13,094 bases of DNA, from positions 1 to 13,094 of the IMG/VR virus record IMGVR_UViG_2703718822_000001, one strand, 5' to 3'. This document shows, piece by piece, positions 1-13,094 of this stretch (positions are counted from its first letter, which is position 1; every line of letters starts with the position of its first letter). The notes under the pieces are model-generated. The model saw nothing but the letters and a program-made list of their open reading frames with translations. It was not told the origin of the DNA and did no database searches. The DNA is from a virus. Its lineage: Duplodnaviria > Heunggongvirae > Uroviricota > Caudoviricetes. A program made the position numbers and the translations under genes.

Positions 1-318
1 ATCTTCAAACGCATACGAAGCCATAATTCGCATCACTGCCGGTTTTATTTCTGCCGGGAGTTTTCTTAACGCCGCCACGCGATCACACCGACTGAGTGCA
101 TATTCTGTCAGCAATTCTGTTGCCCGCTCTCTGTCATTCATACTAATGCCCATTTTCCCAAGGAACGCAGAAAACCCCATCTCAGCCCGATTCTGTGTCA
201 TGCCCTGCGCGGCCATCACATCAGTGATACTCAGCGCATCTTTTGACGTTGAGGCCGATGCATCAGTCAGGCCGGGGGATTTTGGGGAGTAGTATTTCGG
301 TAAATCTTCCAGTTTCAT
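1..318 (-). CDS. late-gene antiterminator Q (phage 82 / QuuQ-like), N-terminal ~106 aa; rest of gene lies beyond the window start
   Basis: Minus-strand frame opens with ATG at 316-318, overlapping the rusA stop as ATGA, and stays open to position 1. Translation MKLEDLPKYYSPKSPGLTDASASTSKDALSITDVMAAQGM... resembles the N-terminus of phage 82-type Q proteins as I recall them. Position directly downstream of rusA is the canonical Q slot. Not in the ORF track because it is truncated by the window edge. Confidence 0.7.
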   Translation of the reverse strand, partial: MKLEDLPKYYSPKSPGLTDASASTSKDALSITDVMAAQGMTQNRAEMGFSAFLGKMGISMNDRERATELLTEYALSRCDRVAALRKLPAEIKPAVMRIMASYAFED

Positions 319-689
319 TTTTTGACCTGCTCTTCAAGCATTATGGGGTAAATCTTCACCCCCAGACGTCCACCAGATACTGGCTGACCACGTACAATAT
401 TGATTTCATCAAACTGCTCGTCATCAATAAGCACTCCCGCATGCGTCAGCGCATCCAGCGGTGCTTTCAGAATATTGTCCAGGTCGCGACGACGCTTATC
501 CGGTGGCTCTGCAATAATTTTTATTGCCAGCCGTCCGGACAGGCTTAATTTCAGTCGCAGCTGGCGAACAATAAGCGCCACTGCCCGGCGATAACGCTCC
601 CCTGCTTTTGATACAAAATATGTGCTGCCACGGCGTCTCCAGTAAGTGTTCACCGTCGGCGGGTAAGGTAAAACCAAATCTATGAGCAT
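315..689 (-). CDS. rusA: RusA-family Holliday junction resolvase
   Basis: 124-aa ORF. Motifs PDKRRRDLDN and SGGRL match the RusA catalytic region (E. coli RusA has PDRRRRDLDN and KGGRL). RBS GAGGTG about 6 nt upstream of the ATG at 687-689. Sits in the nin-region slot next to Q. Confidence 0.85.
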   Translation of the reverse strand: MLIDLVLPYPPTVNTYWRRRGSTYFVSKAGERYRRAVALIVRQLRLKLSLSGRLAIKIIAEPPDKRRRDLDNILKAPLDALTHAGVLIDDEQFDEINIVRGQPVSGGRLGVKIYPIMLEEQVKK

Positions 690-701
690 CAGTCACCTCT
701 T

Positions 702-1751
702 TTACCCGAGCACGCCAGTCGCAAAGGCGTGATCAAGAAAACGAAAAATTAACTCAATCTGAGAGCCGTACTTTTTCTCAAACTCCAGCGGGTCTGCATG
801 AAGTTCGTTGTGGTGCTCCCGGCACAACGGTAGCGTGAAAATATCGTGGGCCTTTGTCCCCATTCCCCCCTGACCATGACCAATCAGGTGATGCGGATCG
901 TCAGCAGGCTTACCACAACACGCACACGGCTGTGTCTTTACCCAGCGCGTGTATTTCTCATTTACCCAACGGCGACGTTTAGGTCGCCTCATGAAAGATT
1001 CCGGAGACTCCGGATCAACGGCAATGCTGAGCACCGCCTTTTCCTGTGGTGAGGGTTGTTGCTGGTGGACGTGAGGCAACGGCGCAAGATTTTTTGTGCG
1101 CTGATTCAGTATGCTGGTGGCGGTCTGCTCTCCCGGTACGATGTCGCTCTCACGGTATACTGAGCGGATTTTTTCCGCTGGTAATCCCAGCGAACGACGC
1201 GCTACTGCCTCAGGTAGTGCATCCACCACCTGATTGCAGACCGCCCACCAGGATAATTCGGCCAGCGATAACTCCCTCTCCTGCGTACCGCTTATTGCGT
1301 GACGGATGACGTCAATCATCCAGGCAACCAGATTCTGCTGAGCAAGTTGCGCCAGTGAATCAGATGTCTGGTCGCGCAGCTGGTTGTCGCAGTGCCAGCA
1401 CAACACCATCGCGCCGGAACCGTAACGATGTATGACAGTTTCGCTGTGATGATAATCGCCATGTGACCACTGGCAGGATTTCACGTGACGTAATAACCAG
1501 TCAGACAGTGCACCAGCACCACCTACTGCACGAATTACCCGCTCATCGCTGAAAAATGGCAGTAATGATTTATCCTCAGCCAGCGGCTGGCGAACGGCAG
1601 GAACGACTCCGGACGACAGACCGCGCATGCTTTTCGGTTCCGGCTCCACCAGCACCCTGCAGCAATGAAAAACCGGCAGTGATTCGCGACCAGGTTTAAG
1701 GACCACCAGGCCAAGTTCCGGTACCAGAACAGGTCTAAGTAATATCCGCAC
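702..1751 (-). CDS. ydfU: YdfU-like prophage protein (DUF968 type) with C-terminal HNH-like Cys/His motif
   Basis: 349-aa ORF, GTG start with GGAGG RBS 5 nt upstream. C-terminal CACCGKPADDPHHLIGHG...LCREHHNELH looks like an HNH/zinc-finger nuclease motif; N-terminal half has a CWHCDNQ / HGDYHH cluster. Same length as K-12 Qin YdfU as I recall it, and adjacent to Q as in Qin. Confidence 0.55.
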   Translation of the reverse strand: MRILLRPVLVPELGLVVLKPGRESLPVFHCCRVLVEPEPKSMRGLSSGVVPAVRQPLAEDKSLLPFFSDERVIRAVGGAGALSDWLLRHVKSCQWSHGDYHHSETVIHRYGSGAMVLCWHCDNQLRDQTSDSLAQLAQQNLVAWMIDVIRHAISGTQERELSLAELSWWAVCNQVVDALPEAVARRSLGLPAEKIRSVYRESDIVPGEQTATSILNQRTKNLAPLPHVHQQQPSPQEKAVLSIAVDPESPESFMRRPKRRRWVNEKYTRWVKTQPCACCGKPADDPHHLIGHGQGGMGTKAHDIFTLPLCREHHNELHADPLEFEKKYGSQIELIFRFLDHAFATGVLG

Positions 1752-1752
1752 G

Positions 1753-2085
1753 TTACCTCCAGATGCGCTGCTGGAATGTGCGGGACGGACGCGGTGGGCG
1801 TTCGGAGTAAGGGAGTCTGACTGAGATTATCCAGTGACGGTAGTCGAGGCTAAGAGCTTTCTTAACCTCGTATCCGCGCCTGCGGTAACACTGAATTATC
1901 CATTCAGCCTGCTCTTCAGTGCATGGAGGATGCTGGAACCAGTCTGATTTGAATGCATGAGAACGCCGCCCGTGCCTGCAGGCAGGAGCGGCAGAGTTAT
2001 CCGAATTGTAAAATCTGGTATCGTGCGCCATCGGTTGTCTCTGCTGGCGCAGCAGGTGCCAGTTGTTCAGGCTGGCGTGTGGCAA
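1753..2085 (-). CDS. hypothetical protein (start uncertain; TTG at 2085 or ATG at 2029-2031)
   Basis: ORF-track ORF whose stop abuts the ydfU-like start, suggesting translational coupling. No strong RBS at either candidate start and no recognisable motifs. Confidence 0.35.
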   Translation of the reverse strand: MPHASLNNWHLLRQQRQPMAHDTRFYNSDNSAAPACRHGRRSHAFKSDWFQHPPCTEEQAEWIIQCYRRRGYEVKKALSLDYRHWIISVRLPYSERPPRPSRTFQQRIWR

Positions 2086-2129
2086 TATTGTCTCTGATTT
2101 CTGTTGTCGTCAACCGCTTCTGTGCTTAC

Positions 2130-2162
2130 TCACTTGATGAGTGAAACGATTAACTTTACTAT
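2130..2162 (+). promoter_or_regulatory. candidate sigma70 promoter with overlapping palindromic operator for the 2213-2548 gene
   Basis: -35-like TTGATG (2134-2139), 17-bp spacer, -10-like TACTAT (2157-2162). Palindrome TCACT-TGATG-AGTGA at 2130-2144 overlaps the -35. Confidence 0.35.
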
Positions 2163-2212
2163 TTACTTAACAGGTTTTTCCTGTACCACGATTCCCCATA
2201 CAGGAGGCCAAC

Positions 2213-2548
2213 ATGAGTGATGACAAAAAAATTGAGTTCAGCACCAGTGATGTGTTGAATGCTTTACTCCATCGCCAGCAGAACATGCAACACCTGGCGA
2301 CACAGGAAAGCGTTGATAACCTGCGTCGTGAGATTGATGGTCGATTCAATTCTTCACAGGACAACGTTGATAACTTCCGACGTGAGGTCGATAGTCGCTT
2401 TAATTCTTTGCAAAACCAGCTAATATCGGTTGATAAGCGCCTGGACAAGCTGGAAACCAAGTTTGATCGACTCCAGTGGTTTATTGTTGCTGCCGCTCTG
2501 GCTCTCATCTTCAAGGATTACATCTTCAGGATTATTGGTGCTCAGTAA
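2213..2548 (+). CDS. small tail-anchored coiled-coil protein with internal tandem repeat (moron; FlxA-position or XhlA-like architecture, family not established)
   Basis: 111-aa ORF with strong AGGAGG RBS 6 nt before the ATG. Two tandem 18-aa repeats (ESVDNLRREIDGRFNSSQ and DNVDNFRREVDSRFNSLQ) encoded by a diverged 54-bp tandem DNA repeat. C-terminal hydrophobic anchor WFIVAAALALIF. Convergent with the surrounding minus-strand operon; own promoter and terminator. Confidence 0.7.
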   Translation: MSDDKKIEFSTSDVLNALLHRQQNMQHLATQESVDNLRREIDGRFNSSQDNVDNFRREVDSRFNSLQNQLISVDKRLDKLETKFDRLQWFIVAAALALIFKDYIFRIIGAQ

Positions 2549-2550
2549 AT

Positions 2551-2578
2551 CCGGCCCCGTTTTCGGGGCTATCTTTTC
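2551..2578 (+). terminator. Rho-independent terminator
   Basis: Stem GCCCCG (2554-2559), loop TTTT, stem CGGGGC (2564-2569), followed by T-rich tail TATCTTTTC, immediately after the TAA stop at 2546-2548. Confidence 0.7.
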
Positions 2579-2733
2579 GCATCTGCATCAGACTTTCCAC
2601 CAACTTTTTATTGCCAGCTTCTGCAATCTACTCTACCTTATGTGCGTCAGAACGGCGCAATGCGCTCGCCTGAGATACGTTTACTTGCCATGGTAACAAC
2701 AGGTAACAGCAATTGTTGTTTCTGTTTTGTTTG

Positions 2734-2817
2734 TTATCCCCAGCGGCAAATCGAATACACCACCAGCGCCACCGCCATCGCAATTCCTACCGTTGTGAAT
2801 GCTTCAGGCCAGGTCAT
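2734..2817 (-). CDS. candidate 27-aa single-TM micropeptide, translationally coupled to the DUF551 gene
   Basis: ATG at 2815-2817 overlaps the DUF551 TGA stop (ATGA). Translation MTWPEAFTTVGIAMAVALVVYSICRWG, then stop. Below the ORF-track size cutoff; hand-translated. Confidence 0.3.
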   Translation of the reverse strand: MTWPEAFTTVGIAMAVALVVYSICRWG

Positions 2818-3371
2818 TGATTCACCTCCTGCGGCGGTTCTGGTAGCGGCATCCAGTGGGTTGCTTGCCTAAGATCATTACCCGGACTAACTGCTATACC
2901 TCCGCGCCGGAACGTGCCTCCGAGATAGCGTGCGGAATATATTAATGGCCCTGCCTCGCTATCGATATTCATCGAAATAAGCACGTTCTGGCTCTTTTCA
3001 GGCATTCGCTCAGTACAGCTTATCCAGCCATCCGGAGTTATCGGAGATCTGGTTGACGTTTCCGAGATTTCCCGAAAATTGTTGGTTGACGAATTCTTAT
3101 TTTCCCGAAAGTTTCCGGCCTGAAGCATGGCGACGCGGCAGGCGTTCCAGCCATCAGCATATGTTTTAGTTACACCGTCGAGATGGCAGGTAAGCAAATC
3201 CATTTCATCAGGCACTACCATTGCTATCGGCTCTGCTTCCAGTGATGCCAGCGCGATACGAAACACATTAGCCAGCAGGCTGTCTGAAGACTTGTTATCG
3301 TGCGCCGAGTCGCTCAGGAAGCCTGTGATGTATGATTTAATCTCCGCGCGTTCTCTGGTAATAGTGCTCAT
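2814..3371 (-). CDS. DUF551-domain phage protein
   Basis: 185-aa ORF with AGGAA RBS 8 nt upstream of the ATG. C-terminal W/P-rich signature DGWISCTERMPE...THWMPLPEPP, typical of the lambdoid DUF551 domain as I recall it. Confidence 0.65.
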   Translation of the reverse strand: MSTITRERAEIKSYITGFLSDSAHDNKSSDSLLANVFRIALASLEAEPIAMVVPDEMDLLTCHLDGVTKTYADGWNACRVAMLQAGNFRENKNSSTNNFREISETSTRSPITPDGWISCTERMPEKSQNVLISMNIDSEAGPLIYSARYLGGTFRRGGIAVSPGNDLRQATHWMPLPEPPQEVNQ

Positions 3372-3717
3372 ATCAGTTTTCCTTATACGGATTAATTTTA
3401 TTGTGCAGTGCGCTGAATGATTCCCATGTCACATCGGTATATAGCTCAATAACTGGTTCAAATGTCCTTCCAATTATCCAGACCAGTAATAGCGGGGATA
3501 TCGGTATCATCAACACTATAAACAGAATGAAAAACAGAAACTCTGTTGTTCTGCTCTTTCGTGGGTAATTTTTTCTAAATAATGTTTCATTTCTTACCGC
3601 CCTTTCGGGCGGCCTCCTGATGTTCTGAGGGTGCAGGAATCCCTCCGGTTAAGGATTTAATAAAAATCGTTTCTGATTTAAATCTTCAGTATTTAGTTGT
3701 TAGTTGGTTTATCGCCT

Positions 3718-4029
3718 TTATGCTTCAGCCTTATTTCGCAACCAGACACAAACCGGGCCATCTTCCGTATCATGAATGGAACCAATAAACCAGCCATCGC
3801 CCTCTGGTCGTTCCGGTTCCCATGCTGAAATATCAGGGCCATCTGCGTCCAGGTTAAAATCATCTTCATCCATAGTGCAGATAGTCCACTGAAGATTATT
3901 TGCCTCCATCCACGCGTTAAATTCTTCCGTTGAAATATTCTCCCGACCATCACAGAATTTTTCATATTCAGGATGTGTCCAGTAGCCATATTCGTCACGA
4001 ACTACCGGCATTTCTTTAATTTCACTCAC
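3718..4029 (-). CDS. hypothetical acidic phage protein
   Basis: 103-aa ORF, GTG start at 4029 preceded by AGGAGG at 8-nt spacing (alternative in-frame ATG at 4009-4011). Acidic, Trp-rich. Start overlaps the upstream gene stop. Confidence 0.5.
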   Translation of the reverse strand: MSEIKEMPVVRDEYGYWTHPEYEKFCDGRENISTEEFNAWMEANNLQWTICTMDEDDFNLDADGPDISAWEPERPEGDGWFIGSIHDTEDGPVCVWLRNKAEA

Positions 4030-4249
4030 TGTTAACCTCCTGCAACGCTACACGATACGCCTTCTTTATCCACGCCTTACTGCCATATAATTTCGTCTTC
4101 ATAATAAACACACCTGCACGACTCGCCGATATCCCCGGACAGGTTAACAGCACAGCATCCACCACACGGTTATGCTTCCGGAACTCCATTACAGTACTGC
4201 TGATAAGCACCTGCCCCACCGGGCCGTAATCCTGATACAGGATTTTCAC
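4022..4249 (-). CDS. hypothetical protein
   Basis: 75-aa ORF, GTG start at 4249 preceded by AGGAGG at 8-9 nt; GTGA overlap with the stop of the upstream gene. Confidence 0.45.
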   Translation of the reverse strand: MKILYQDYGPVGQVLISSTVMEFRKHNRVVDAVLLTCPGISASRAGVFIMKTKLYGSKAWIKKAYRVALQEVNSE

Positions 4250-4500
4250 GCAGACACCCTCCTGTCGAAATAAACGTAGTTATTCACTGTGCGCAACGGC
4301 ATTCCGAATTTTCTGGCGATTTCTCTCCTCGACACGCCACGCTGATGCTGCTGTCGCGCCAGCTCAATATCACTCTGCGGATATTTTGCTGACTGGTGAT
4401 AATCACCCCGTAACATCATACTAATACCCAGTTCCCGCGCTTTCGTTCTGACCGCAGCCTCACTACGACCAATAAGCATCCCGATGCATTCCACCGTCAT
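4246..4500 (-). CDS. small DNA-binding protein with two HTH-like segments (NinH-like style)
   Basis: Chosen start is the ATG at 4498-4500 (MTVECIGMLIGRSEAAVRTKARELGI...). The ORF-track start at 4650 is a GTG that would overlap the upstream gene by 90 nt. Second HTH-like segment QRGVSRREIARKFGMPLRTVNNYV. Confidence 0.45.
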   Translation of the reverse strand: MTVECIGMLIGRSEAAVRTKARELGISMMLRGDYHQSAKYPQSDIELARQQHQRGVSRREIARKFGMPLRTVNNYVYFDRRVSA

Positions 4501-4559
4501 TGTTCCCGCACACTGCCGGAGTATCAGGATTTCCGCCCGGCACCACGTCTTCCAGCCAC

Positions 4560-5264
4560 TCACTGTTGCTGCTCTCTGGTGGTGGTAATATCCCGGAGAA
4601 TATCCCTGTGTTTGTTCAGTTCCCGCAGCGCGGCACAGACACGCTCCCACTTCTGGACATGACTTTTCGCCCGGCGCAGCTCGCGGTTAGCCACATTCAG
4701 CGATGGTAGAATCAGGTCATCTGCTTTCGTTTCGGTAAACGATGGCAGCGACTGCACAATGTCCGCCACAGTATCTGTTTTAATTTCTTCCTGTGTCGCC
4801 GCTTCCTGTACCGGTAACGCAACTCCTGCTGGCTGAGGAAAGGCTTTACCATCCGTTTCCGCTACGGATGCAGCTTCCGGCTCTGCCGGTAAATCAGCGC
4901 CCGGTATGCAGTAACGAAATTTACCACCCTGATTCACGCGAATCAGACGACCTTTGCTGATTGCCATCGCCAGTGATGAATTCGCCCGGCGGGAGGTAAT
5001 CCCGAACATTAACGCCAGTTCGTCAGCCGACTGAGGACCATGCTGTTCAATCGCGTTAATCAGCATCTCTGCAGTGGTTTTTGGGGCCTCTTCAGTTGCC
5101 TCACTCGTCAGCCACCACATCGACCCCTTGTTATCAGCTTCGCCACGACGCTTCAGCTTCCAGAGTTCGGTAACAGCATCGTCACGGCTGATTTCAAGAC
5201 GGGCTGCAATCTCGTGCGACGAGGCTTTTTTCAGTGCTTTCAGTGCGTCAAAAACGGTTTCCAT
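4560..5264 (-). CDS. hypothetical protein with tandem winged-helix-like N-terminal domains
   Basis: Start moved to ATG 5262-5264 ([13 protein letters not shown]...), which has a strong GGAGGA RBS 8 nt upstream and sits in the gap after the DnaC-like stop. Two consecutive wHTH-like segments, acidic/Pro-rich linker, C-terminal coiled coil. Confidence 0.6.
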
Positions 5265-5286
5265 TAAATTTTCCTCCGGATAAAAA

Positions 5287-6039
5287 TTACTTCGCCACAC
5301 TCAGATGGCTGACATTGGGACGCCAGCTTTCCCAGTTAAAACTCACCCAGCGACCACCGTTCATGGTCATCCGGTCCATAATCCTCTCACCAAGAAGCGT
5401 GCTCATTGCGGCATGATTCAGGTTTGTCAGCATCCCGACACTGCGCAGTGATGCCGTCCGGCGATCAACAATCTGGTGCAGTACCACCTGCTCGTTTTTC
5501 GTCTCACGCTGGATGCCAATTTCGTCAAGAACCAGGAGGTCCACTTCGCACAGTTCACGCAAAAATTTTTCCCCTGACAGCCCGTCATCGTAGCTGGCAT
5601 GTAACGCGCTCATCACATCCGCCACAGTGACCACTATCACGGATTTACCGGCCTTCAGCAGACGATTACCCACAGCCGCCGCCAGATGATTTTTTCCGGT
5701 TCCCGGATTCCCGCTGAACACGAAGTTTGTATAACCGGTTATCATTTCCTCAGCGATGGATTTGGCCTGGCTCAGCGCATGTTTCTGCCCGTCGTTCCGC
5801 ACCTGGTAATTCGCGAACGAACATTTGCGGTGCAGCGGCTGGATGCCCGAACGGTTCAGGATTTTTTCCACCCGCAACTGACGATTCCGGCGGTTAATCT
5901 CCTCGCAGTATTTCCGGCCTTCGGCAAGTTGCCACTCGCGCCACTCCTCCGGCGTACAGTACGGCACGGTTGCGCGTTCAGAAGCCAGTCTGCGGATGCG
6001 TTCCAGAACACCAACTGCAACTGTCGCGATATCTTTCAT
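5287..6039 (-). CDS. DnaC/IstB-type AAA+ replicative helicase loader (lambda P analogue; YdaV-like)
   Basis: 250 aa. Walker [16 protein letters not shown] and Walker B-like DLLVLDEIG. Immediately downstream of the O-like initiator. Confidence 0.85.
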
Positions 6040-6045
6040 GGTCAG

Positions 6046-7014
6046 TTACCCCCTGAAACCCGGTGGAATTTCAGTGTCCGGTTCAGAAATATGATTCACG
6101 CAACTCTGCGCAGGCCCACGCCCAAGACGAATGACCAGTTCATCCCATTTTTCGCGCAGTTTTGCCGGACTCATGATATTTTTTACCCAGAACGGATCCC
6201 GCTGCACCCGACTGAACATTTCACAAATCTGCCGGTGACTGCGGCCATCCAGCATGCGCATCATCCGGACATCGTTAGCCCATGTCGTCCAGTTTGGCTC
6301 TCTGGGGCGAGAAACCTCACCATCATCACTGGCTGCGTGTTCATACAGCGCAACAACACGCCCCCAGATCCACTGCGCACAGGTAATATCATCACGGGTT
6401 CCCCACTGTCGCTTCGGCACATTCCACGTATGCGCATCAGGGTGTTTATCCAGAAAGCGTTCAACCGGAGATGATTTTTTTTCGTCCGGAAGTGAAACGT
6501 CCGGACAAGAAGATCTTTTATCTGACGGATCAAGTTTTAATACTGACGGATCGGGGTCAATCATCGCCCCCCTAATCGGCTGTTTTTTATCAATGGTTGA
6601 CCCCTCAGAATTTGACGGGTCAACCATTGAGGGGTCAATATTTGACGGGTCAACTGTTAACGGGTCATTTTTTGCCGGGCTAATTTTTCTTTTCGGTTTA
6701 TATGCCTCACGCGCCGCCGCTGCCGCTGCTTCGAGTTTTTCCACATTAAGCCGATAGATATTGCTTACGTTACGCCCACCGATCTTACGCTCTTCCTTCG
6801 TCAGCCAGCCCTCTTTCGCCAGTTCTGCAATCGCAGATTTCACGGTGGATTCACTTCTGGCACCGATCTGACGCCGGATCGTTTCCATAGCAGGCCATGA
6901 CACCCCCTCGTCATTGCTGTAATCTGCAAGACGGGCCATTACTGCCACCCTTGATAAGATCATGCCAGTGAAGGCGCATCCTTCCCAGACAAGACCATGA
7001 AGCTTGCTGCTCAT
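6046..7014 (-). CDS. replication initiator (lambda O analogue / YdaU-like) with origin embedded in its linker region
   Basis: ATG at 7012-7014 with GGGGG RBS 5 nt upstream (the ORF-track start at 7029 is a GTG). N-terminal winged-helix-like domain, central D/P/S-rich repetitive linker (DPLTVDPSNIDPSMVDPSNSEGSTID...) that is encoded by the iteron DNA, then a C-terminal domain. Confidence 0.8.
   Translation of the reverse strand: MSSKLHGLVWEGCAFTGMILSRVAVMARLADYSNDEGVSWPAMETIRRQIGARSESTVKSAIAELAKEGWLTKEERKIGGRNVSNIYRLNVEKLEAAAAAAREAYKPKRKISPAKNDPLTVDPSNIDPSMVDPSNSEGSTIDKKQPIRGAMIDPDPSVLKLDPSDKRSSCPDVSLPDEKKSSPVERFLDKHPDAHTWNVPKRQWGTRDDITCAQWIWGRVVALYEHAASDDGEVSRPREPNWTTWANDVRMMRMLDGRSHRQICEMFSRVQRDPFWVKNIMSPAKLREKWDELVIRLGRGPAQSCVNHISEPDTEIPPGFRG
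6550..6706. repeat. candidate replication origin: iterons plus AT-rich region inside the O-like gene
   Basis: At least four direct repeats of (T)TGACGGGTCAA-like units at about 15-bp spacing (6611-6667: tttgacgggtcaacc / attgaggggtcaata / tttgacgggtcaact / gttaacgggtca), with further copies at 6553-6560 (ggggtcaa) and inverted at 6597-6604 (ttgacccc). Flanked by AT-rich ttttttgccgggctaatttttcttttcggtttatat (6667-6706). Confidence 0.6.
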
Positions 7015-7036
7015 AAAACCCCCGAACACCGTGCTT

Positions 7037-7462
7037 TTAGTGCATCACCACAGCATTCCCTGCCGGGCCGCCGCGATTTATCTGGTCATACAAAACGACC
7101 GCTGACGCAACAAAATCGTCGACATCCTTCACCAGCCGATCCCGCCGTTCGACAATCTCCCGGTAGTACTCAGAACTGTGACTGCGCATACGGGCCACCA
7201 GCAAAGGCGGCATCGCCTTTTCGATCGCCGGTAACAGAGCCTGAATTTTTTCAACAGCATCAGGGGTGTCTTTATCCAGCCAACGGAAAATTTTCTGGGT
7301 ATTACGAGCCAGGGCCTCAGGATGAGTGTCGTCGTACAGTTCCGGGAACGTCATCCCCAGTTCGAAATAAGTCCGGGCTATTTCAGCTGCGGGAACTTTC
7401 TCACCGTCAGGATATGCCCAGGCATTCATCGCCATGCGGATGTGCTCATGCTTGATTTTCAT
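7037..7462 (-). CDS. ydaT: YdaT-family protein (proposed CII-like regulator in Rac-type immunity regions)
   Basis: 141 aa, starts MKIKHEHI and ends ...VVMH, matching my recollection of Rac YdaT (about 140 aa). ATG overlaps the Cro-like stop (ATGA at 7459-7462). Third gene position as in racR-ydaS-ydaT. Confidence 0.55.
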   Translation of the reverse strand: MKIKHEHIRMAMNAWAYPDGEKVPAAEIARTYFELGMTFPELYDDTHPEALARNTQKIFRWLDKDTPDAVEKIQALLPAIEKAMPPLLVARMRSHSSEYYREIVERRDRLVKDVDDFVASAVVLYDQINRGGPAGNAVVMH

Positions 7463-7713
7463 GAATCAACTCCCAACAGCTTTTTCGTAGTAGTTTTATT
7501 TCTGCCAATAGTTAAAATTGCATCGGCAGAAAATAATCCGTTTGATGCATGAGCGATTTTTTCAGCATAATTTGTTTCGCCGGTATATTCAGTGCGAGGC
7601 AATTTTCCGTTATCCATCCATTTGTAGATTGCTCTTTGGCTGACACCACAAACGTCGGCCACAACAGAAACGCGAACAGTTTTGATTACATCTTCAAGTG
7701 TTTTCTGGTTCAT
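7459..7713 (-). CDS. Cro-like HTH repressor (DicC/YdaS family)
   Basis: Start set at ATG 7711-7713 (MNQKTLEDVIK...), with GAGGGTG RBS 6 nt upstream. The ORF-track start at 7785 would leave only 8 bp before the divergent repressor gene. HTH segment VADVCGVSQRAIYKWMDNGKLP. Confidence 0.7.
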   Translation of the reverse strand: MNQKTLEDVIKTVRVSVVADVCGVSQRAIYKWMDNGKLPRTEYTGETNYAEKIAHASNGLFSADAILTIGRNKTTTKKLLGVDS

Positions 7714-7792
7714 ATCACCCTCACAATGTGAACTTTGAGTACACTCTATAACAGAACTGACAGTACATTCAAGAGCGAATATCATTGAACTT
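7714..7792. promoter_or_regulatory. divergent immunity promoter/operator region (PR/PRM analogue)
   Basis: 79-bp AT-rich gap between the divergent Cro-like and repressor starts. Repeated GTACA-core motifs: GAGTACACT (7737-7745) and AGTACATT (7760-7767). Confidence 0.6.
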
Positions 7793-8212
7793 ATGGTTCA
7801 TGAAGATAAAGCGCGTAAAGAGTTCGCCAGTAGGCTTGCGCTAGCCTGTGAAAACGCTGGTTATGAACAACATGGAAGGCAGGCAGAAATTGCCCGTCGA
7901 ATGAAATTAACACCAAAAGCGGTTAGCAAATGGTTTAATGGCGAAACAATTCCTCGCCGAGAGAAATTAAGGGAATTAGCAACACTCATTGGAACAACAC
8001 CAACCTATCTTTTGGGAGAGGATACAGAAGAAAGTGGACAGGTACGTTTCTATCAGGAGTTAAATCCAAGACAAAAAATCATCATTGATCTTCTGGACGA
8101 GCTCCCTGACAGTGAGACAGATGAACTTTTAAAAACTCTTGAGGAGAAAAAACAAAAGTACAATGCAATTTACGAAGAGTTAGCACGAAAGAAAAAACAA
8201 AAAGCCTCTTAA
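7793..8212 (+). CDS. dicA: DicA-like (RacR-like) XRE-family HTH immunity repressor without a peptidase S24 domain
   Basis: 139 aa. HTH region GRQAEIARRMKLTPKAVSKWFNGETIPRREKLRELATLIGTTPTYLLGED. C-terminal LNPRQKIIIDLLDELPDSETDELL... resembles the DicA C-terminus as I recall it. Divergent from the Cro-like gene and followed by ydfA/B/C-dicF-dicB as in Qin. Symbol is by synteny plus resemblance. Confidence 0.7.
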   Translation: MVHEDKARKEFASRLALACENAGYEQHGRQAEIARRMKLTPKAVSKWFNGETIPRREKLRELATLIGTTPTYLLGEDTEESGQVRFYQELNPRQKIIIDLLDELPDSETDELLKTLEEKKQKYNAIYEELARKKKQKAS

Positions 8213-8275
8213 ACCAGCATAAATCCGGTAGCGTCCCCCTCCGGGTTTGTGTTTCACTTTTTCCCATCTCATTTT

Positions 8276-8335
8276 TTTACACATAAAATGTACTTAAAGT
8301 ACTTTACAACACTGAACATAAAGTACATTATATAC
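8276..8335 (+). promoter_or_regulatory. candidate repressor-controlled promoter of the downstream dicB-type operon
   Basis: AT-rich region with -35-like TTTACA (8303-8308) and -10-like CATTAT (8326-8331), overlapped by GTAC-core operator-like repeats ATGTACTTAAAGTACTTT (8287-8304) and AAGTACATT (8321-8329). The 8-mer AGTACATT is identical to that at 7760-7767. Confidence 0.4.
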
Positions 8336-8510
8336 ATACCAACCCACCCCGCCCCACAGAACGCAGGGCAATACTTCGAGTTACCAGGCAGTGGTCAGGG
8401 GTTAAGTAGCCAGCCCGAGGCGTAAGAACATGACGGCAGGGTTCAACTTTAATAACTATGCAGCAGGTTTTTGTTCCGCTACCCCGGCGTTAAGGGGAAA
8501 TGAGGTCAGC

Positions 8511-8666
8511 ATGGATACTATCGATCTTGGCAACAACGAATCTCTGGTGTACGGCGTGTTTCCAAACCAAGACGGTACGTTCACCGCGATGACGTATACC
8601 AGAAGCAAAACGTTTAAAACCGAAGCTGGCGCGCGTCGCTGGCTGGAAAGAAATTCAGGTGAGTGA
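8511..8666 (+). CDS. ydfA: YdfA-like small protein (51 aa)
   Basis: Start set at ATG 8511 (MDTIDLGNNESLVYGVFPNQ...), which has a GAGGT RBS at 5-nt spacing; the ORF-track start at 8430 has a weaker RBS. Resulting 51 aa equals the K-12 YdfA length, and it is the first gene after the DicA-like repressor. Confidence 0.55.
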   Translation: MDTIDLGNNESLVYGVFPNQDGTFTAMTYTRSKTFKTEAGARRWLERNSGE

Positions 8667-8667
8667 T

Positions 8668-8796
8668 ATGGATTTCGACGCAATCATGGAAAAGGCTTAC
8701 GAAGAATACTTCGAAGGCCTTGCCGAAGGCGAAGAAGCTCTCAGCTTCAGTGAGTTTAAACAGGCGCTTTCCAGTTCGGCAAAATCTAACGACTGA
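8668..8796 (+). CDS. ydfB: YdfB-like small acidic protein (42 aa)
   Basis: Hand-translated: MDFDAIMEKAYEEYFEGLAEGEEALSFSEFKQALSSSAKSND. ATG 1 nt after the ydfA-like TGA. 42 aa equals the K-12 YdfB length. Below the ORF-track cutoff. Confidence 0.55.
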   Translation: MDFDAIMEKAYEEYFEGLAEGEEALSFSEFKQALSSSAKSND

Positions 8797-8825
8797 TAAG
8801 CGAAGCGGCACCGCGAGGAATCAGT

Positions 8826-9041
8826 ATGCAGAAACGAGAACCCGTCATCATCGCACCAGACTATACCGAGGATGAAATTTACGAATGGATGTGCGGAAAG
8901 ATACGCGCCATTAATGACCTGAAGCAGGCCGCTGACTACAAAGAGCGCCTCTCTAAAGAACTGGTGTCAGCGGAGCAGGATATTACCACTCTGGCAAAAA
9001 GCGCGGCATTAAACGTTTCGCGAGTGATTGAAAACTACTGA
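8826..9041 (+). CDS. ydfC: YdfC-like small protein (71 aa)
   Basis: 71-aa ORF with GAGGAA RBS. Third small gene of the operon; K-12 YdfC is 72 aa as I recall. Confidence 0.55.
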   Translation: MQKREPVIIAPDYTEDEIYEWMCGKIRAINDLKQAADYKERLSKELVSAEQDITTLAKSAALNVSRVIENY

Positions 9042-9130
9042 CCAATGAGCTCAAGTAGTTCTCCGCAGATGAAGTGCGTGCGCCGGACACGGATAAACCT
9101 CCGGCATGCTCTTTAACAATCTGGATATTC

Positions 9131-9577
9131 CTAACCACAAAGAAATCGCATCAATTTGGATTTTGTGGGCAACTTCTCGTGTTGTTCGATGGAGACGCCT
9201 ATTTTGATCTGTGTTTTTAAGATCGCAATATCTTTAAGTGATGACCAAATATGATCATCTGTTTTTCCCAGAGTTTTTAACTGAATTTTCAATTCCGAAT
9301 CAGAATATTTTTCTGCATCATCAAAAAGCTGCAAATATTCTGCGGATTTTCTCATGGCATTACCTGACTTTTGTCCGAATCCATAAATCGTTTGGTCGGT
9401 TGCGATCACAACAATAAAAACGCCAGAAATTTCCGGAATGAATCCGCCAATGACAGATGAACCGAGGATAATACTCACTACTGAGAGAAGTTTATCGAGA
9501 CGACCAGTCGCTACAGAAAACAGTTGCTCAAGAAAATAGCCATATAAAATTCTGTCAAGAATATCATCCCGGTCCAT
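9131..9577 (-). CDS. reverse-oriented two-TM membrane protein; candidate superinfection-exclusion / abortive-infection effector (SieB-like position, SLATT-like topology)
   Basis: 148-aa ORF, ATG at 9575-9577 with AGGTGA RBS. Two adjacent hydrophobic helices (LLSVVSIILGSSVIGGFI and ISGVFIVVIATDQTIYGF) followed by about 78 aa of soluble, charged C-terminus. Locally AT-rich compared with neighbours. Opposite orientation to the dicA-dicB operon and lying where K-12 Qin, as I recall, has only a short ydfC-dicF spacer. Confidence 0.7.
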   Translation of the reverse strand: MDRDDILDRILYGYFLEQLFSVATGRLDKLLSVVSIILGSSVIGGFIPEISGVFIVVIATDQTIYGFGQKSGNAMRKSAEYLQLFDDAEKYSDSELKIQLKTLGKTDDHIWSSLKDIAILKTQIKIGVSIEQHEKLPTKSKLMRFLCG

Positions 9578-9636
9578 ACACCATCACCTGCTTGTGCTCT
9601 TTGCTCTGTCATATGATTTCCTTGGATCGTTGGGGA

Positions 9637-9672
9637 TATCCAGATTATACAGATTTCCTGTCGTTGGGGAAT
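9637..9672 (-). promoter_or_regulatory. candidate promoter for the 9131-9577 gene
   Basis: Perfect -10 TATAAT on the minus strand (complement of 9644-9649), preceded by TG; weak -35 TTCCCC (complement of 9667-9672) at 17-bp spacing. About 65-nt leader to the ATG. Confidence 0.35.
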
Positions 9673-9926
9673 GACGGAAACCACCTCGCCTGACGTGGTT
9701 AAAAGCAGGCACACAACACGAAAGCGCACGGCGAAGTTCGTCTCACTGCACGGTGTCGTTAAATTTAATTCGACCGTGCGCTTCCGGTTGTGGCGCCCCG
9801 CGAAATGGCGCGGCGGTAAGTATGGCGGGGGTGGGAGGGACGCCTTTCCCCGTTGAGGACACCGGGTTGTCAGGTTGACCATACGCTTAAGTGACAACCC
9901 CGCTACAACGCCCTCTGTTATCAATA

Positions 9927-9984
9927 TTCTGGTGACATTTGGCGGTATCAGTTTTACTCCGTGACTGCTCTGCCGCCCTTTTTT
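9927..9984 (+). ncRNA. dicF: DicF small RNA (ftsZ-targeting) with intrinsic terminator-like 3' end
   Basis: ttctggtgacatttggcggtatcagttttactccgtgactgctctgccgccc followed by a run of six T (9979-9984). This matches the E. coli DicF sequence as I recall it (UUUCUGGUGACGUUUGGCGGUAUCAGUUUUACUCCGUGACUGCUCUGCCGCCC) apart from about two substitutions near the 5' end. Lies 170 bp upstream of dicB as in Qin. Confidence 0.85.
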
Positions 9985-9987
9985 AAA

Positions 9988-10139
9988 AGTGAATTTTGTG
10001 ATGCGGTGAATGCGGCTCAGCGCACGCGGAACAGTTAAAACCAAAAACAGTGTTATGGGTGGATTCTCTGTATCCGGCGTTAATTGTTAACTGGTTAACG
10101 TCACCTGGAGGCACCAGGCACCGCATCACAAAATTCATT
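9988..10139. repeat. long inverted repeat (18-bp perfect core, about 21 bp extended) bracketing 110 bp between dicF and dicB
   Basis: 9991-10008 GAATTTTGTGATGCGGTG is the exact reverse complement of 10119-10136 CACCGCATCACAAAATTC; pairing extends to 9988/10139 with one G-T. The loop contains GTTAAC-TG-GTTAAC (10087-10100) and CCTGG-aggca-CCAGG (10104-10118). Confidence 0.5.
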
Positions 10140-10154
10140 GTTGAGGACGCGATA

Positions 10155-10343
10155 ATGGAAAAGTTATCATGTAATGCCAGCACGTCTGAACTTCGTTTCG
10201 AAATTGGCGTTATCACTGGAGACAAAACATTTATTGAAGACGCCATTAAGCAGAGAAAACTCGAGCAGGACCTGTTAAATGAAGTATGCATTCCTTCAAT
10301 GCTGGCTCGTCTGGACCTGCTGCAAAAAGGATATAAACAATGA
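10155..10343 (+). CDS. dicB: DicB cell-division inhibitor (MinC-dependent FtsZ antagonist)
   Basis: 62 aa: MEKLSCNASTSELRFEIGVITGDKTFIEDAIKQRKLEQDLLNEVCIPSMLARLDLLQKGYKQ. Closely parallels E. coli DicB as I recall it (same length; FEIGV...TEDAI..RK...LLN..CI.SMLARL). GAGGA RBS. Stop overlaps the ydfD-like ATG (ATGA). Confidence 0.85.
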   Translation: MEKLSCNASTSELRFEIGVITGDKTFIEDAIKQRKLEQDLLNEVCIPSMLARLDLLQKGYKQ

Positions 10344-10531
10344 ATACAACATTTGCACTCGTTCTGACAGTTTATCTTGTTTCCGGCGAATCTCTTGAGC
10401 TGGTGACTGGCTTATACGGTTCAATGAAAGAATGCATGGCTGCAGCAGCAGAACAAAAAATTCCCGGTAACTGTTATCCGGTAGATAAAACTACTCACAC
10501 TAATAATAACGAAATACCGGCAGGACTTTAA
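10340..10531 (+). CDS. ydfD: YdfD-like small protein with N-terminal hydrophobic segment (reported lysis-type protein in Qin)
   Basis: 63 aa, equal to the K-12 YdfD length, directly after dicB. N-terminal TFALVLTVYLVSG hydrophobic helix. Confidence 0.55.
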   Translation: MNTTFALVLTVYLVSGESLELVTGLYGSMKECMAAAAEQKIPGNCYPVDKTTHTNNNEIPAGL

Positions 10532-10624
10532 AACAGCACCGTAATTAATATCCGGTTTCATTTTTATATGCCAGCAATGGCAGGGATTTGTTCACCCTTA
10601 AATCTGTAATGAGGTTAAAACAAA

Positions 10625-13094
10625 ATGAGTAAAGTCTTTATTTGCGCCGCCATTCCGGACGAACAGGCAATAAAAGAAGAGGGCGCAGTTGCTGTAGCCA
10701 CTGCCATTGAAGCCGGTGATGAACGCCGCGCCCGTGCCAAATTTACCTGGCAATTCCTGGAGCAATATCCTGCTGCTCAGGACTGCGCTTATAAATTTCT
10801 TGTCTGCGAAGATAAACCCGGCATGCCCCGCCCTGCTATCGACTCCTGGGATACCGAATATATGCAGGAAAACCGCTGGGATGAGGAATCCGCTTCCTTT
10901 ATTCCGGTCGAACCAGAATCCGATCCTATTAACGTCAATTTTGACAAGCTGTCCCTTGAAGTACAGAACGCGGCCCTAGTTAAGTTCGGTACATGTGAAA
11001 ACATCACCGTTGATATGGCGATTGACGCGCAGGAATTACTGCAAGAAGACGTGGCTACCTTTGACGGGCATATCGTTGAAGCACTGATGAAAACGCCTGA
11101 AATTAACGCTATGTATCCGGAACGCAAACTGTTCGCTATCGGATGGGTTAAACACAAATGTAAGCCGGGTACCAAATGGCCCGAAATTCAGGCTGAATTA
11201 CGTAACTGGAAAAAACGGCAGGACGCAGAGCGCAAAGAGACTGGAAAATACACGTCTGTTGTTGATCTTGCCCGCGCCAAAGCCAACCGACAGCACACTG
11301 AAAACCCAGCAGAAAAAATCCCTCCTGTAACTGCCGCCATTCATCGCGAATACAAGCAGACATGGAAAACCCTGGACAGGGAGCTGGCCTACTATCTCTG
11401 GCCTGGTGATGCGGATGCCGGAAACATTGACGGCAGCATCCTTCGCTGGGCTAAAAATGAAATTATCGCCAGAGATCGCGAAGACTGGAAGCGCATCTCC
11501 GCATCAATGCGCAAACAACCTGATGCGCTTCGCTACAGCCGCCAGACTATTTTTGGCCTTGTCCGTGAACGCCCGATCGACATTCACAAAGATCCCGTGG
11601 CACTGAACAAATACATCACTGAATACCTGACTACAAAGGGCGTGTTTGAAGATGACGAAGGAACAAATCAGGGCACAGCTAATACTCTCTCGTCGCCAGT
11701 ACCAGAAACTGACGCAGTGGAAACGGCAATTCAGGACAACGAAAAAACCGAATGCAAAGTGGAAGTCGAATCATCTGTAGAGCGTGAGGGGCCGTTCTAC
11801 TTCCTCTTCACCGACAAGGATGGCGAAAAATACGGTCGCGCAAACAAACTTTCTGGTCTGGATAAGGCACTGGCTGCCGGGGCTACTGAAATCACGAAAG
11901 AAGAATATTTCGCCCGCAAAAACAGTACATACTCAGGTTCACAACAAAATACTGGTGCATCTGACACGACCGCACAACCAGAGCCGGTAAAAGTTACCGC
12001 TGACGAAGTAAACAAAATTATGCAGGCAGCCAATATCAGCCAGCCTGACGCCGATAAGTTGCTTGCTGCCTCTCGCGGAGAATTTGTTGCAGGGATTAGC
12101 GACCCGAATGATCCGAAATGGGTTAAGGGGATCCAGACCCGCGATTCTGTAAACCAGAACCAGCATGAATCGGAACGGAACTACCAAAAAGCGGAACAAA
12201 ACAGCCCAAATGCGTTACAAAACGAGCCAGAAACGAAACAGCCTGAACCAGTGGCGCAACAGGAAGTGGAAAAAGTCTGCACCGCCTGCGGTCAGACCGA
12301 CGGCGGCAACTGCCCTGATTGTGGCGCGGTGATGGGCGACGCAACATACCAGGAAACATTCGATGAAGAGTATCAGGTTGAAGTTCAGGAAGATGATCCG
12401 GAGAAAATGGAAGGCGCTGAACATCCACACAAGGAGAACACTGGCGGCAATCAGCATCACGATAGCGATAATGAAACTGGCGAGACGGCAGATCACTCAA
12501 TTAAGGTGAACAGTCATCAAGAAATCACATCCACCAGCAGGACGTGTGACCATCTAATGATCGACCTTGAAACCATGGGAAAAAATCCTGATGCCCCGAT
12601 CATCTCAATAGGTGCAATATTTTTCGATCCGCAAACCGGAGATATGGGACCGGAATTTAGTAAGACTATCGATCTGGAAACTGCTGGCGGAGTCATTGAT
12701 CGGGACACCATTAAATGGTGGCTTAAGCAATCACGCGAAGCGCAATCTGCCATTATGACCGATGAAATCCCGTTAGATGATGCACTGTTACAATTGCGGG
12801 AATTTATCGACGAAAACTCCGGTGAATTTTTTGTTCAGGTCTGGGGAAATGGAGCCAACTTCGACAACACGATTTTGCGCCGTTCATACGAACGGCAGGG
12901 GATCCCCTGCCCGTGGCGTTACTACAACGATCGCGATGTACGCACAATCGTTGAGCTGGGGAAAGCCATAGACTTCGATGCCAGAACGGCTATTCCATTC
13001 GAAGGTGAGCGCCATAATGCACTTGATGACGCCCGTTACCAGGCAAAATACGTTTCAGTTATCTGGCAAAAACTGATCCCGAGTCAGGCTGATT
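10625..13094 (+). CDS. large early-left-operon protein (at least 823 aa, 3' end beyond window) with C4 zinc ribbon and DEDDh 3'-5' exonuclease domain; YdfE/RecE-position protein
   Basis: I hand-checked codon by codon: ATG at 10625 (GAGGT RBS 9 nt upstream) and no in-frame stop through 13093. Absent from the ORF track only because it runs off the window. Zinc ribbon CTACGQTDGGNCPDCG at about 12283-12330. Exonuclease motifs: Exo I MIDLETMG (about 12557-12580), Exo II GNGANFDNTIL, Exo III HNALDDARYQAKY (His codon 13013-13015). Confidence 0.8.
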   Translation, partial: MSKVFICAAIPDEQAIKEEGAVAVATAIEAGDERRARAKFTWQFLEQYPAAQDCAYKFLVCEDKPGMPRPAIDSWDTEYMQENRWDEESASFIPVEPESDPINVNFDKLSLEVQNAALVKFGTCENITVDMAIDAQELLQEDVATFDGHIVEALMKTPEINAMYPERKLFAIGWVKHKCKPGTKWPEIQAELRNWKKRQDAERKETGKYTSVVDLARAKANRQHTENPAEKIPPVTAAIHREYKQTWKTLDRELAYYLWPGDADAGNIDGSILRWAKNEIIARDREDWKRISASMRKQPDALRYSRQTIFGLVRERPIDIHKDPVALNKYITEYLTTKGVFEDDEGTNQGTANTLSSPVPETDAVETAIQDNEKTECKVEVESSVEREGPFYFLFTDKDGEKYGRANKLSGLDKALAAGATEITKEEYFARKNSTYSGSQQNTGASDTTAQPEPVKVTADEVNKIMQAANISQPDADKLLAASRGEFVAGISDPNDPKWVKGIQTRDSVNQNQHESERNYQKAEQNSPNALQNEPETKQPEPVAQQEVEKVCTACGQTDGGNCPDCGAVMGDATYQETFDEEYQVEVQEDDPEKMEGAEHPHKENTGGNQHHDSDNETGETADHSIKVNSHQEITSTSRTCDHLMIDLETMGKNPDAPIISIGAIFFDPQTGDMGPEFSKTIDLETAGGVIDRDTIKWWLKQSREAQSAIMTDEIPLDDALLQLREFIDENSGEFFVQVWGNGANFDNTILRRSYERQGIPCPWRYYNDRDVRTIVELGKAIDFDARTAIPFEGERHNALDDARYQAKYVSVIWQKLIPSQAD

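Follow-up and report, generated by a model that had tools for sequence, protein, structure and literature searches.

A covarying RNA domain upstream of the small RNA DicF recurs as a portable module in temperate phages

Introduction

DicF is among the oldest known bacterial small RNAs (sRNAs), and the RNA that lies ahead of it has so far been taken as spacer. In Escherichia coli K-12, DicF is cut from the transcript of the dicB operon by way of a species of about 190 nucleotides (nt) with an RNase III-dependent 5' end (Faubladier, Cam and Bouche 1990; Ragunathan et al. 2023, bioRxiv 10.1101/2023.04.14.536235), which RNase E converts into the 53-nt DicF (same DicF literature, bioRxiv 10.1101/2023.04.14.536235). 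A 72-nt form of DicF carries a 3' end made by RNase III, and the 190-nt species, a stable RNA, builds up in stationary phase. Is the RNA between the two 5' ends no more than a spacer? The question is raised by a 13,094-nt stretch of phage DNA (Caudoviricetes; IMG/VR record IMGVR_UViG_2703718822_000001, positions 1 to 13,094), called the window below, which corresponds to a Qin-like lambdoid prophage's immunity and early-left region. Within it, the interval 9780-9905 had been singled out from the letters alone as a GC-rich structured element upstream of dicF and inside an inserted region, possibly a processing or stability element for the dicF precursor, a small structured RNA or a recombination scar. 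We find that this interval falls almost entirely within a covarying, noncoding RNA domain which, by homology with K-12, is the 5' part of the DicF precursor, and which recurs in other temperate phages as a portable module joined to different terminator or sRNA tails.

Results

The Qin prophage of K-12 aligns to the window from about 9701 to 10160, through dicB, at 90.5% identity (blastn), and the K-12 counterpart of the interval sits between ydfC and dicF. By this alignment the interval lies in the conserved ydfC-dicF untranslated region of Qin-type prophages and outside the insertion, which relative to K-12 occupies roughly 9042-9700 and contains the open reading frame (ORF) 9131-9577; the placement inside the inserted region was wrong. 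Counting back from the K-12 terminator via the alignment maps the 5' end of the ~190-nt species to window positions 9781-9786, inside the 3' arm of a long stem, H1 (Table 1). Judged by K-12 homology, the interval almost certainly forms the 5' portion of the ~190-nt DicF precursor already described, a species that in the window phage would measure about 198 nt because of an 8-nt insertion in the loop of hairpin H3. The suggestion that the element aids processing or stability of the dicF precursor agrees with this placement, the interval mapping between the RNase III-made and the RNase E-made 5' ends of K-12, and a double-stranded stem of the RNase III type is present at the 5' boundary of the precursor, namely H1, an imperfect stem of 22 base pairs (bp). 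Dependence on RNase III and RNase E is known from K-12 and would extend to the window phage by homology. The Rfam covariance model of DicF (RF00039) matches 9927-9978 only, and 9780-9905 lies upstream, outside the family model.

Among 87 distinct dicF-linked copies, positions 9754-9926 are almost invariant, and for that reason no covariation can be read from them. RNAalifold on the Qin-type copies alone accordingly gave no compensatory pairs, the sequences being too alike, and was not used; nor was a long-range pairing that it proposed with the region after DicF, which ignores the competing stem 9985-10008/10119-10142. The fold was derived from 113 distinct cores, dicF-free loci included. From these it is near certain that 9786-9911 of the + strand is a noncoding structured RNA domain of about 125 nt, in which a closing helix, P1, encloses three hairpins, H2, H3 and H4. 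In alignment A3, a plain MAFFT alignment of 38 diverse copies that was not fitted to the model, 93.5% of the cells are paired and 14 of the 27 pairs change on both sides, a result reached by none of 500 shuffles, and slid controls were paired in 37-61% of cells. Alignment A5, fitted to the model and with a pseudoknot added, agrees with A3.

Each helix contributes to this signal in its own way. Two-sided changes affect four of the eight P1 pairs in A3 and five of eight in A5. H2 is paired in 97-99% of cells and shows a single compensatory change, from G-C to A-U, in locus L197. H3 keeps its pairing through wholly different stem sequences, including CGGGG/CCCCG, CUGGGG/CUCCAG, CCAGGUG/CACCUGG and CGAGG/CCUCG, with four of its five pairs changing on both sides (A5). 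H4 is the perfect 9-bp stem of the original prediction, GGGTTGTCA (9864-9872) with TGACAACCC (9892-9900) around a 19-nt loop, and is found exactly as claimed; by an arithmetic estimate, chance would supply about 0.02 such perfect 9-bp stems within 40 nt over an interval of 126 nt. The proposed test of this stem by compensatory changes in homologues came out in its favor, six of the nine pairs being compensatory across at least six stem sequences (GUUGUCA, GUUGCCA, GUAACCA, GCUACCA, GUUACCA and AUCACCA), and the stems covary around a loop of unchanged sequence. The presence of G-U pairs makes the structure specific to the + strand, which is the transcribed strand of the operon. A small structured RNA is hence supported more strongly than had been expected, and a recombination scar is rejected, the element being conserved, strand-specific by its G-U pairs and covarying.

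The bounds 9780-9905 do not hold for the element, which is larger and comprises 9786-9911 plus flanking stems. Single-sequence folding of 9786-9911 recovers the core, at z = -1.72 against shuffles; the interval 9780-9905 folds no better than shuffles (z = +0.48), because it cuts through P1. The rise in GC content against the flanks is confirmed (0.61-0.62 across 9750-9899, flanks 0.29-0.47), and nucleotide diversity over 9770-10140 is 0.02-0.1, below that at the start of dicB. The proposed Rfam search returned no family over the element: of the 4227 covariance models of Rfam 15, run on 9600-10160 up to E = 10, only DicF and a sub-threshold STnc100 match appeared. A tRNA-like fold was considered and dropped, as ARAGORN finds no tRNA or tmRNA gene in 9500-10200.

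Table 1. Features of the early-left region of the window, listed by position
Feature	Positions	Strand	Remarks
DicA-like repressor	7793-8212		
ydfA/B/C-like genes	8430-9041		ydfA-like product with DUF1391
Inserted ORF, 148 amino acids	9131-9577	-	between ydfC-like gene and conserved leader
H1, 5' arm	9712-9735	+	long imperfect stem, 22 bp with 9769-9792; candidate RNase III substrate; seen as inverted repeat
H1, 3' arm	9769-9792	+	last 6 nt (9787-9792) double as P1 5' strand
P1, 5' strand GUUGUGGC	9787-9794	+	pairs with 9902-9909; 8-bp closing helix; from folds and covariation
H2, CCGCG/CGCGG	9798-9802/9809-9813	+	near-invariant loop AAAUGG
Junction J2/3 CGGUAAGUAUGG	9814-9825	+	near-invariant; GUAUGG 9820-9825, 5' half of probable pseudoknot
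H3, variable hairpin	9826-9830/9848-9852	+	here CGGGG/CCCCG
Junction J3/4	9853-9863	+	ACACCG almost invariant
H4	9864-9872/9892-9900	+	9-bp stem of original prediction; 19-nt loop GGUUGACCAUACGCUUAAG; CCAUAC 9879-9884, 3' half of probable pseudoknot
P1, 3' strand GCUACAAC	9902-9909	+	from folds and covariation
AU-rich linker	9910-9926	+	RNase E site making the DicF 5' end, per K-12 literature
DicF sRNA with terminator hairpin	9927-9978	+	Rfam RF00039, 77 bits, E = 5.9e-16; T-run to about 9984
Downstream inverted repeat, 5' arm	9985-10008	+	24 nt, 92% complementary to 10119-10142
Downstream inverted repeat, 3' arm	10119-10142	+	just 5' of dicB
dicB	10155-10343	+	Pfam PF05358
ydfD-like gene	10340-10531		

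Beyond the nested helices, GUAUGG in J2/3 and CCAUAC in the H4 loop are fully complementary, and the sequences point to a probable 6-bp pseudoknot that would tie the H2/H3 junction to the H4 loop. Its pair 9821/9883 is U-A in 35, C-G in 4 and U-G in 4 distinct sequences; we call the pseudoknot probable and no stronger because this covarying pair likely reflects one or two evolutionary events. An all-against-all covariation scan was swamped by clade-linked changes, and the pseudoknot pair is all that was retained from it.

All 37 sequence variants of the Qin-type copies form the stem H1 alike, with conserved arms and a variable apical part (9736-9768). The CACAAC at the base of H1 pairs with GUUGUG at 9787-9792, for which H1 and P1 compete. 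Long H1-like stems of other sequence likewise sequester the P1 5' strand in the cdtI, F1055/L183, L185 and L197 lineages; among the lineages compared, P7 and pPE4 have no such stem. As an observation in its own right, CACAAC and GUUGUG follow one another in alternation at up to four sites, in the H1 5' arm (9712-9717), at 9787-9792, at 9904-9909 and in a linker hairpin of loci L183, L135 and L196, as a chain of mutually exclusive pairings that is attenuator-like in appearance. The CACAACA motif had also suggested the GcvB sponges AgvB and AsxR as candidates, which were set aside as unrelated, those genes lying 3' of PR'. On the other side of P1, linker positions 9917-9924 are predicted to pair with the DicF seed (9931-9938), all eight pairs being kept with one-sided changes only. 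Further downstream, the repeat 9985-10008/10119-10142 is likely, by analogy with K-12, to be the downstream RNase III site, which would put the 3' end of the 72-nt DicF at about 9998. The dicF-dicB spacer is strongly conserved as well, and the sub-threshold STnc100 match falls in it (9992-10132, + strand; 37.4 bits against a gathering threshold of 47, E = 1.3e-06).

The element is present in 4301 of 5426 complete E. coli genomes (79%), at 8898 places and up to eight times per genome, and no annotated feature lies under it in any of the E. coli matches listed. Its tie to dicF loosens on this wider view, many phages carrying the element with no recognisable dicF. A distant blastn search of phage genomes finds 9787-9917 alone, without dicF, in Ayreon, cdtI, Stx2c phages, 2H10, Salmonella phage F1055, pPE4 and P7, and there is no Rfam DicF match beside the element in cdtI, F1055, pPE4 and P7. 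The P7 form occurs in 504 plasmid records of Escherichia, Salmonella, Klebsiella and Shigella, which are taken as P1-like phage-plasmids because nearly all of the matches listed are 90-120 kb long and non-mobilizable. Covariance model R1, built on the element, finds a single copy in each of 100 loci. The search of genome contigs with the dicF pattern yielded only eight loci.

The orientation is always sense within a repressor-controlled early operon. In cdtI, F1055 and pPE4 the element lies a few hundred nucleotides past cI/dicA, and in P7 (locus L132, 2429-2606; AF503408, 70972-71149) about 35 nt past the C1 operator Op(ban), from which position it follows that the leader of the P7 ban operon carries the element; a terminator follows it at once, then tRNA-Asn and tRNA-Thr. 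C4 antisense RNA, a candidate suggested by the P7 match, was rejected for the same reason, as the P7 element is in the ban operon leader and not in immI. Separately, Rfam matches to C4 antisense RNA, isrK and c4-a1b1 occur on the pR side of several loci (L133 540-728, L183 2569-2769, L162 1171-1359, L134 29-105).

In 105 of the 113 distinct copies a terminator-like hairpin with a T-run begins 4-29 nt past P1, six further copies have visible long or weak terminators, and two singleton types have none in the 70 nt shown. Terminators were scored by a custom check, since a consensus scanner misses the DicF terminator, whose loop exceeds 8 nt. Many tails begin with UUUGGCGG like DicF and continue with different single-stranded stretches of 15-45 nt. 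The Rfam DicF model has no match in the tails of L133 (3118-3190), L135 (3107-3180), L188, L196, L143 and L183. The domain is thus a portable module joined to different terminator or sRNA tails; there may be a wider group of DicF-like sRNAs with exchangeable seeds, and the Rfam model probably takes in only part of the DicF family.

Some of the records that carry these loci call for comment. E. coli-type dicF loci on contigs binned as Veillonella parvula (L128) and Collinsella (L130) metagenome-assembled genomes are most likely mis-binned prophage contigs of Enterobacteriaceae. The recorded host of Actinobacillus phage vB_Apl-pPE4 (L135, PP818812), Actinobacillus pleuropneumoniae, looks questionable; the pPE4 early region is E. 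coli-like (dicA / ydaT / kil / exonuclease VIII, plus the element). In the window itself, the product of the inserted ORF 9131-9577 has hydrophobic stretches and matches PHROG 6315 (unknown function), with no match in a Pfam search; the ORF may represent a moron or a gene of the exclusion type that is read opposite to the operon. In a near-identical relative genome, exonuclease, xis and int follow the ydfD-like gene.

Discussion

What, then, does the domain do? The explanation that we consider best, and to which we give about an even chance, is that it is a processing platform on pre-DicF, serving maturation or stabilisation of the sRNA. We infer the following order of events. The transcript of the dicB operon would fold H1 first, with GUUGUG held in this stem and P1 blocked. 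RNase III would then cut H1 at about 9781-9786, upon which the freed GUUGUG could pair with CYRCAAC and close P1, so that the compact core caps the new 5' end. The AU-rich linker would be left as the sole accessible single strand for RNase E, and cleavage there would release DicF, whose seed in the precursor would have been masked by 9917-9924.

Several observations weigh against this explanation. The RNase III site is placed arithmetically, within about 5 nt, and single-sequence fold energies are modestly below those of shuffles (z = -1.4 to -1.9). About 50 unpaired nucleotides in the H2 loop, J2/3, J3/4 and the H4 loop are near-invariant, which a pure spacer does not need, and the domain is better conserved than the sRNA that it delivers. 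In the P7 type the terminator begins about 8 nt past P1 and leaves no room for a seed, so that in this type the product or regulator has to be the domain itself. Finally, the loci were gathered by exact matching to dicF or to the H4 loop, which partly builds in the invariance of these two segments; that of H2, J2/3 and J3/4 is independent of the search pattern, and J2/3 is invariant in copies retrieved through a different segment.

The main rival, which we consider possible but doubtful, is that the domain is a cis-acting regulator of transcription, either a put-like antiterminator or a riboswitch or attenuator, that sets read-through of the adjacent terminator. With similar reserve, it would in this way control dicB/kil, recombination, xis and int in early operons without an N protein. 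The settings described above suit such a role: the constant sense orientation in repressor-controlled early operons, near cI/dicA in cdtI, F1055 and pPE4 and near Op(ban) in P7, and the intrinsic terminator-like hairpin within 4-29 nt of P1 in nearly all copies, with dicB, exonuclease, xis and int all lying beyond the terminator. The architecture, a P1-closed core with many invariant unpaired bases, is aptamer-like, no N-type protein was found among the neighbours tested, and at the corresponding place in HK639 a putL-like RNA of similar length, 126 nt, is annotated. However, the element has no likeness in sequence or structure to the put RNAs of HK022 or HK639, it occurs once per phage and not as a pL/pR pair, and in Qin-type phages it sits about 0.8 kb from the promoter, behind three genes. 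No conserved helix was found that competes with the terminator stem, although the serial CACAAC/GUUGUG alternatives exist upstream, and in K-12 the terminated 190-nt species accumulates, which means that termination does happen there. More tentatively still, the analogy would allow for a new class of cis-regulatory RNA in N-less lambdoid and P1-like phages, by which the polymerase is made terminator-resistant or a signal is sensed. If so, the element would decide between stopping early-left transcription, with a DicF-type sRNA as the result, and reading on into division inhibitors, recombination and excision genes, and the RNase III cut of the upstream stem would be the switch that lets the domain fold.

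A further alternative is unlikely in our view, namely that the functional product is the RNA from RNase III site to terminator, or the released leader, which would work as a decoy, a sponge or a trans regulator. On this equally unlikely account a host protein or RNA would be bound via the invariant loops, and DicF would be a mere 3'-end by-product in one lineage. Such a function could explain why the domain is better conserved than its tails and occurs with seedless ones, as in P7, why stationary-phase cells accumulate a stable 190-nt species, why the H4 loop is invariant while stems covary, and why 79% of E. coli genomes hold the element in up to eight copies each. Yet the internal pseudoknot probably takes up six of the 19 H4-loop nucleotides, no Rfam family or known protein-binding motif is matched, and in the DicF literature we found no phenotype apart from that of DicF. 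Of these accounts, the processing platform remains the most likely and a cis-acting regulator its main rival.

It is very improbable that the conservation reflects coding constraint on a real small protein gene, ORF 9671-9856 (61 amino acids, rich in Arg and Gly). The ORF matches PHROG 8854 (unknown function) at E = 1.3e-22, and several phage records annotate a 'hypothetical protein' across the region. The frame, however, is open and in phase between conserved anchors in only 23 of 82 homologues and stopped or shifted in 59, with in-frame stops in 45 (K-12 type) and frame-shifting lengths in 12. The first 30 nt of the ORF fall in sequence missing from K-12-type copies, its product has no Pfam match, ORFs over the element vary in strand, frame and length with none common to 104 relatives, and the variation tracks base pairing, G-U included, and not codon positions. 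The most likely source of the PHROG 8854 match is that ORFs have been called repeatedly across a conserved RNA, and this PHROG and the 'hypothetical protein' calls are probably annotation artefacts. The original prediction had read the ORF as artefact-like and the region as noncoding, and rightly so: the ORF exists but its frame is not conserved.

The G-tract GGCGGGGGTGGGAGGG is present at 9824-9839, where it had been noted, but it is not a conserved feature of the element. The common form of H3 is GGCGGGG-UUAUUCCUU-CCCCG; the window and its near-identical relative L002 have GGCGGGGG-UGGGAGGGACGCCUUU-CCCCG, in which the stem is unchanged and the loop is longer by 8 nt. Of the 4317 E. coli records that match, only 13 reach at least 95% identity to the window variant. 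By this comparison the G-tract is a rare 8-nt enlargement of the H3 loop, and incidental. That the interval is a feature of the DNA, be it a recombination junction, a G-quadruplex tract or a protein-binding site, is hardly credible: the G-tract and the GC jump do adjoin the insertion boundary near 9700, but the tract is restricted to a rare variant, the element is collinear and conserved over thousands of prophages well within the homology block, the G-U pairs give a strand-specific structure that points to RNA and the covariation contradicts a DNA feature, and with only three runs of at least three G, and no conserved four-run set, there is no canonical three-tetrad quadruplex. Overall, the original prediction is partly supported.

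The transcript was known as pre-DicF; its fold, the covariation and its existence as a dicF-independent portable module appear to be new. We did not find the fold or the module in Rfam 15, in the DicF literature or by a text search for the element sequence; Faubladier and Bouche 1994, titled on widespread prophage sequences around dicF, may note the conserved flank. What had passed for a spacer is a covarying domain with a probable pseudoknot, better conserved than DicF's relatives, and roughly four in five complete E. coli genomes carry it without annotation, often more than once. This points to an unrecognised layer either in the making of sRNAs by temperate phages or in early-left control without N protein.

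Comparison with known systems

The closest relative is the K-12 DicF precursor, which is the homologous locus, with the element as the stretch between its RNase III-made and RNase E-made 5' ends. The window differs by the 8-nt loop insertion and by an unrelated gene inserted upstream. The K-12 literature treats the stretch as untranslated spacer or precursor and describes no fold, covariation or occurrence away from dicF.

The put RNAs of HK022 and HK639, which bind RNA polymerase and act in cis as antiterminators, resemble the element in being structured RNAs, sense-strand in the early-left operon of N-less lambdoid phages, that lie ahead of terminators and downstream of an early repressor-controlled promoter (for the element in P7, cdtI, F1055, pPE4 and Qin-type phages). 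They consist of two stem-loops and usually form a pL/pR pair, whereas the element has a P1-closed three-hairpin core with a probable pseudoknot and is single-copy. Model R1 finds nothing in the immunity regions of HK022 or HK639, and the best local alignment of the element with put scores 18 (shuffle mean 15.8, maximum 27), compared with 64 for HK639 putL against HK022. As to riboswitches and attenuators, their hallmark of a conserved P1-closed core closely trailed by an intrinsic terminator is seen here.

In the pL leader of lambda, nutL is reportedly followed by an RNase III-processed hairpin before N, as Kameyama and colleagues are said to have described in 1991. The likeness lies in a long RNase III-sensitive stem in an early-left leader, the processing of which alters the fate of the downstream RNA; the sequences are unrelated, however, lambda has a boxB/N system that is lacking here, and the product here is an sRNA precursor. 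EAR, the eps-associated RNA of Bacillus, is reportedly an intra-operon processive antiterminator (work attributed to Irnov and Winkler, 2010). Like the element it is a structured RNA of about 120 nt with a pseudoknot, a probable one in the element, and is placed between operon genes and ahead of terminators; sequence and host are unrelated, and an antiterminator role for the element would be by analogy only.

Among sRNAs, MicL, CpxQ and SroC exemplify stem-loop-guided RNase E maturation of sRNAs derived from operons or 3' untranslated regions, and there, too, the sRNA is freed by RNase E at a single-stranded AU-rich site beside a stable structure (review PMC9438474). The upstream structure of the element is much larger and more conserved than site selection needs, has its own RNase III entry site and recurs with different tails. 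AgvB and AsxR, finally, are modular prophage sRNAs that combine a conserved part with a short variable seed at a fixed position (Tree et al. 2014, PMC4104026). They are primary transcripts of 51-60 nt, encoded 3' of PR', in which the conserved part is the 3' terminator half (PMC4104026), whereas the conserved part of the element is a 125-nt 5' domain in the early-left operon.

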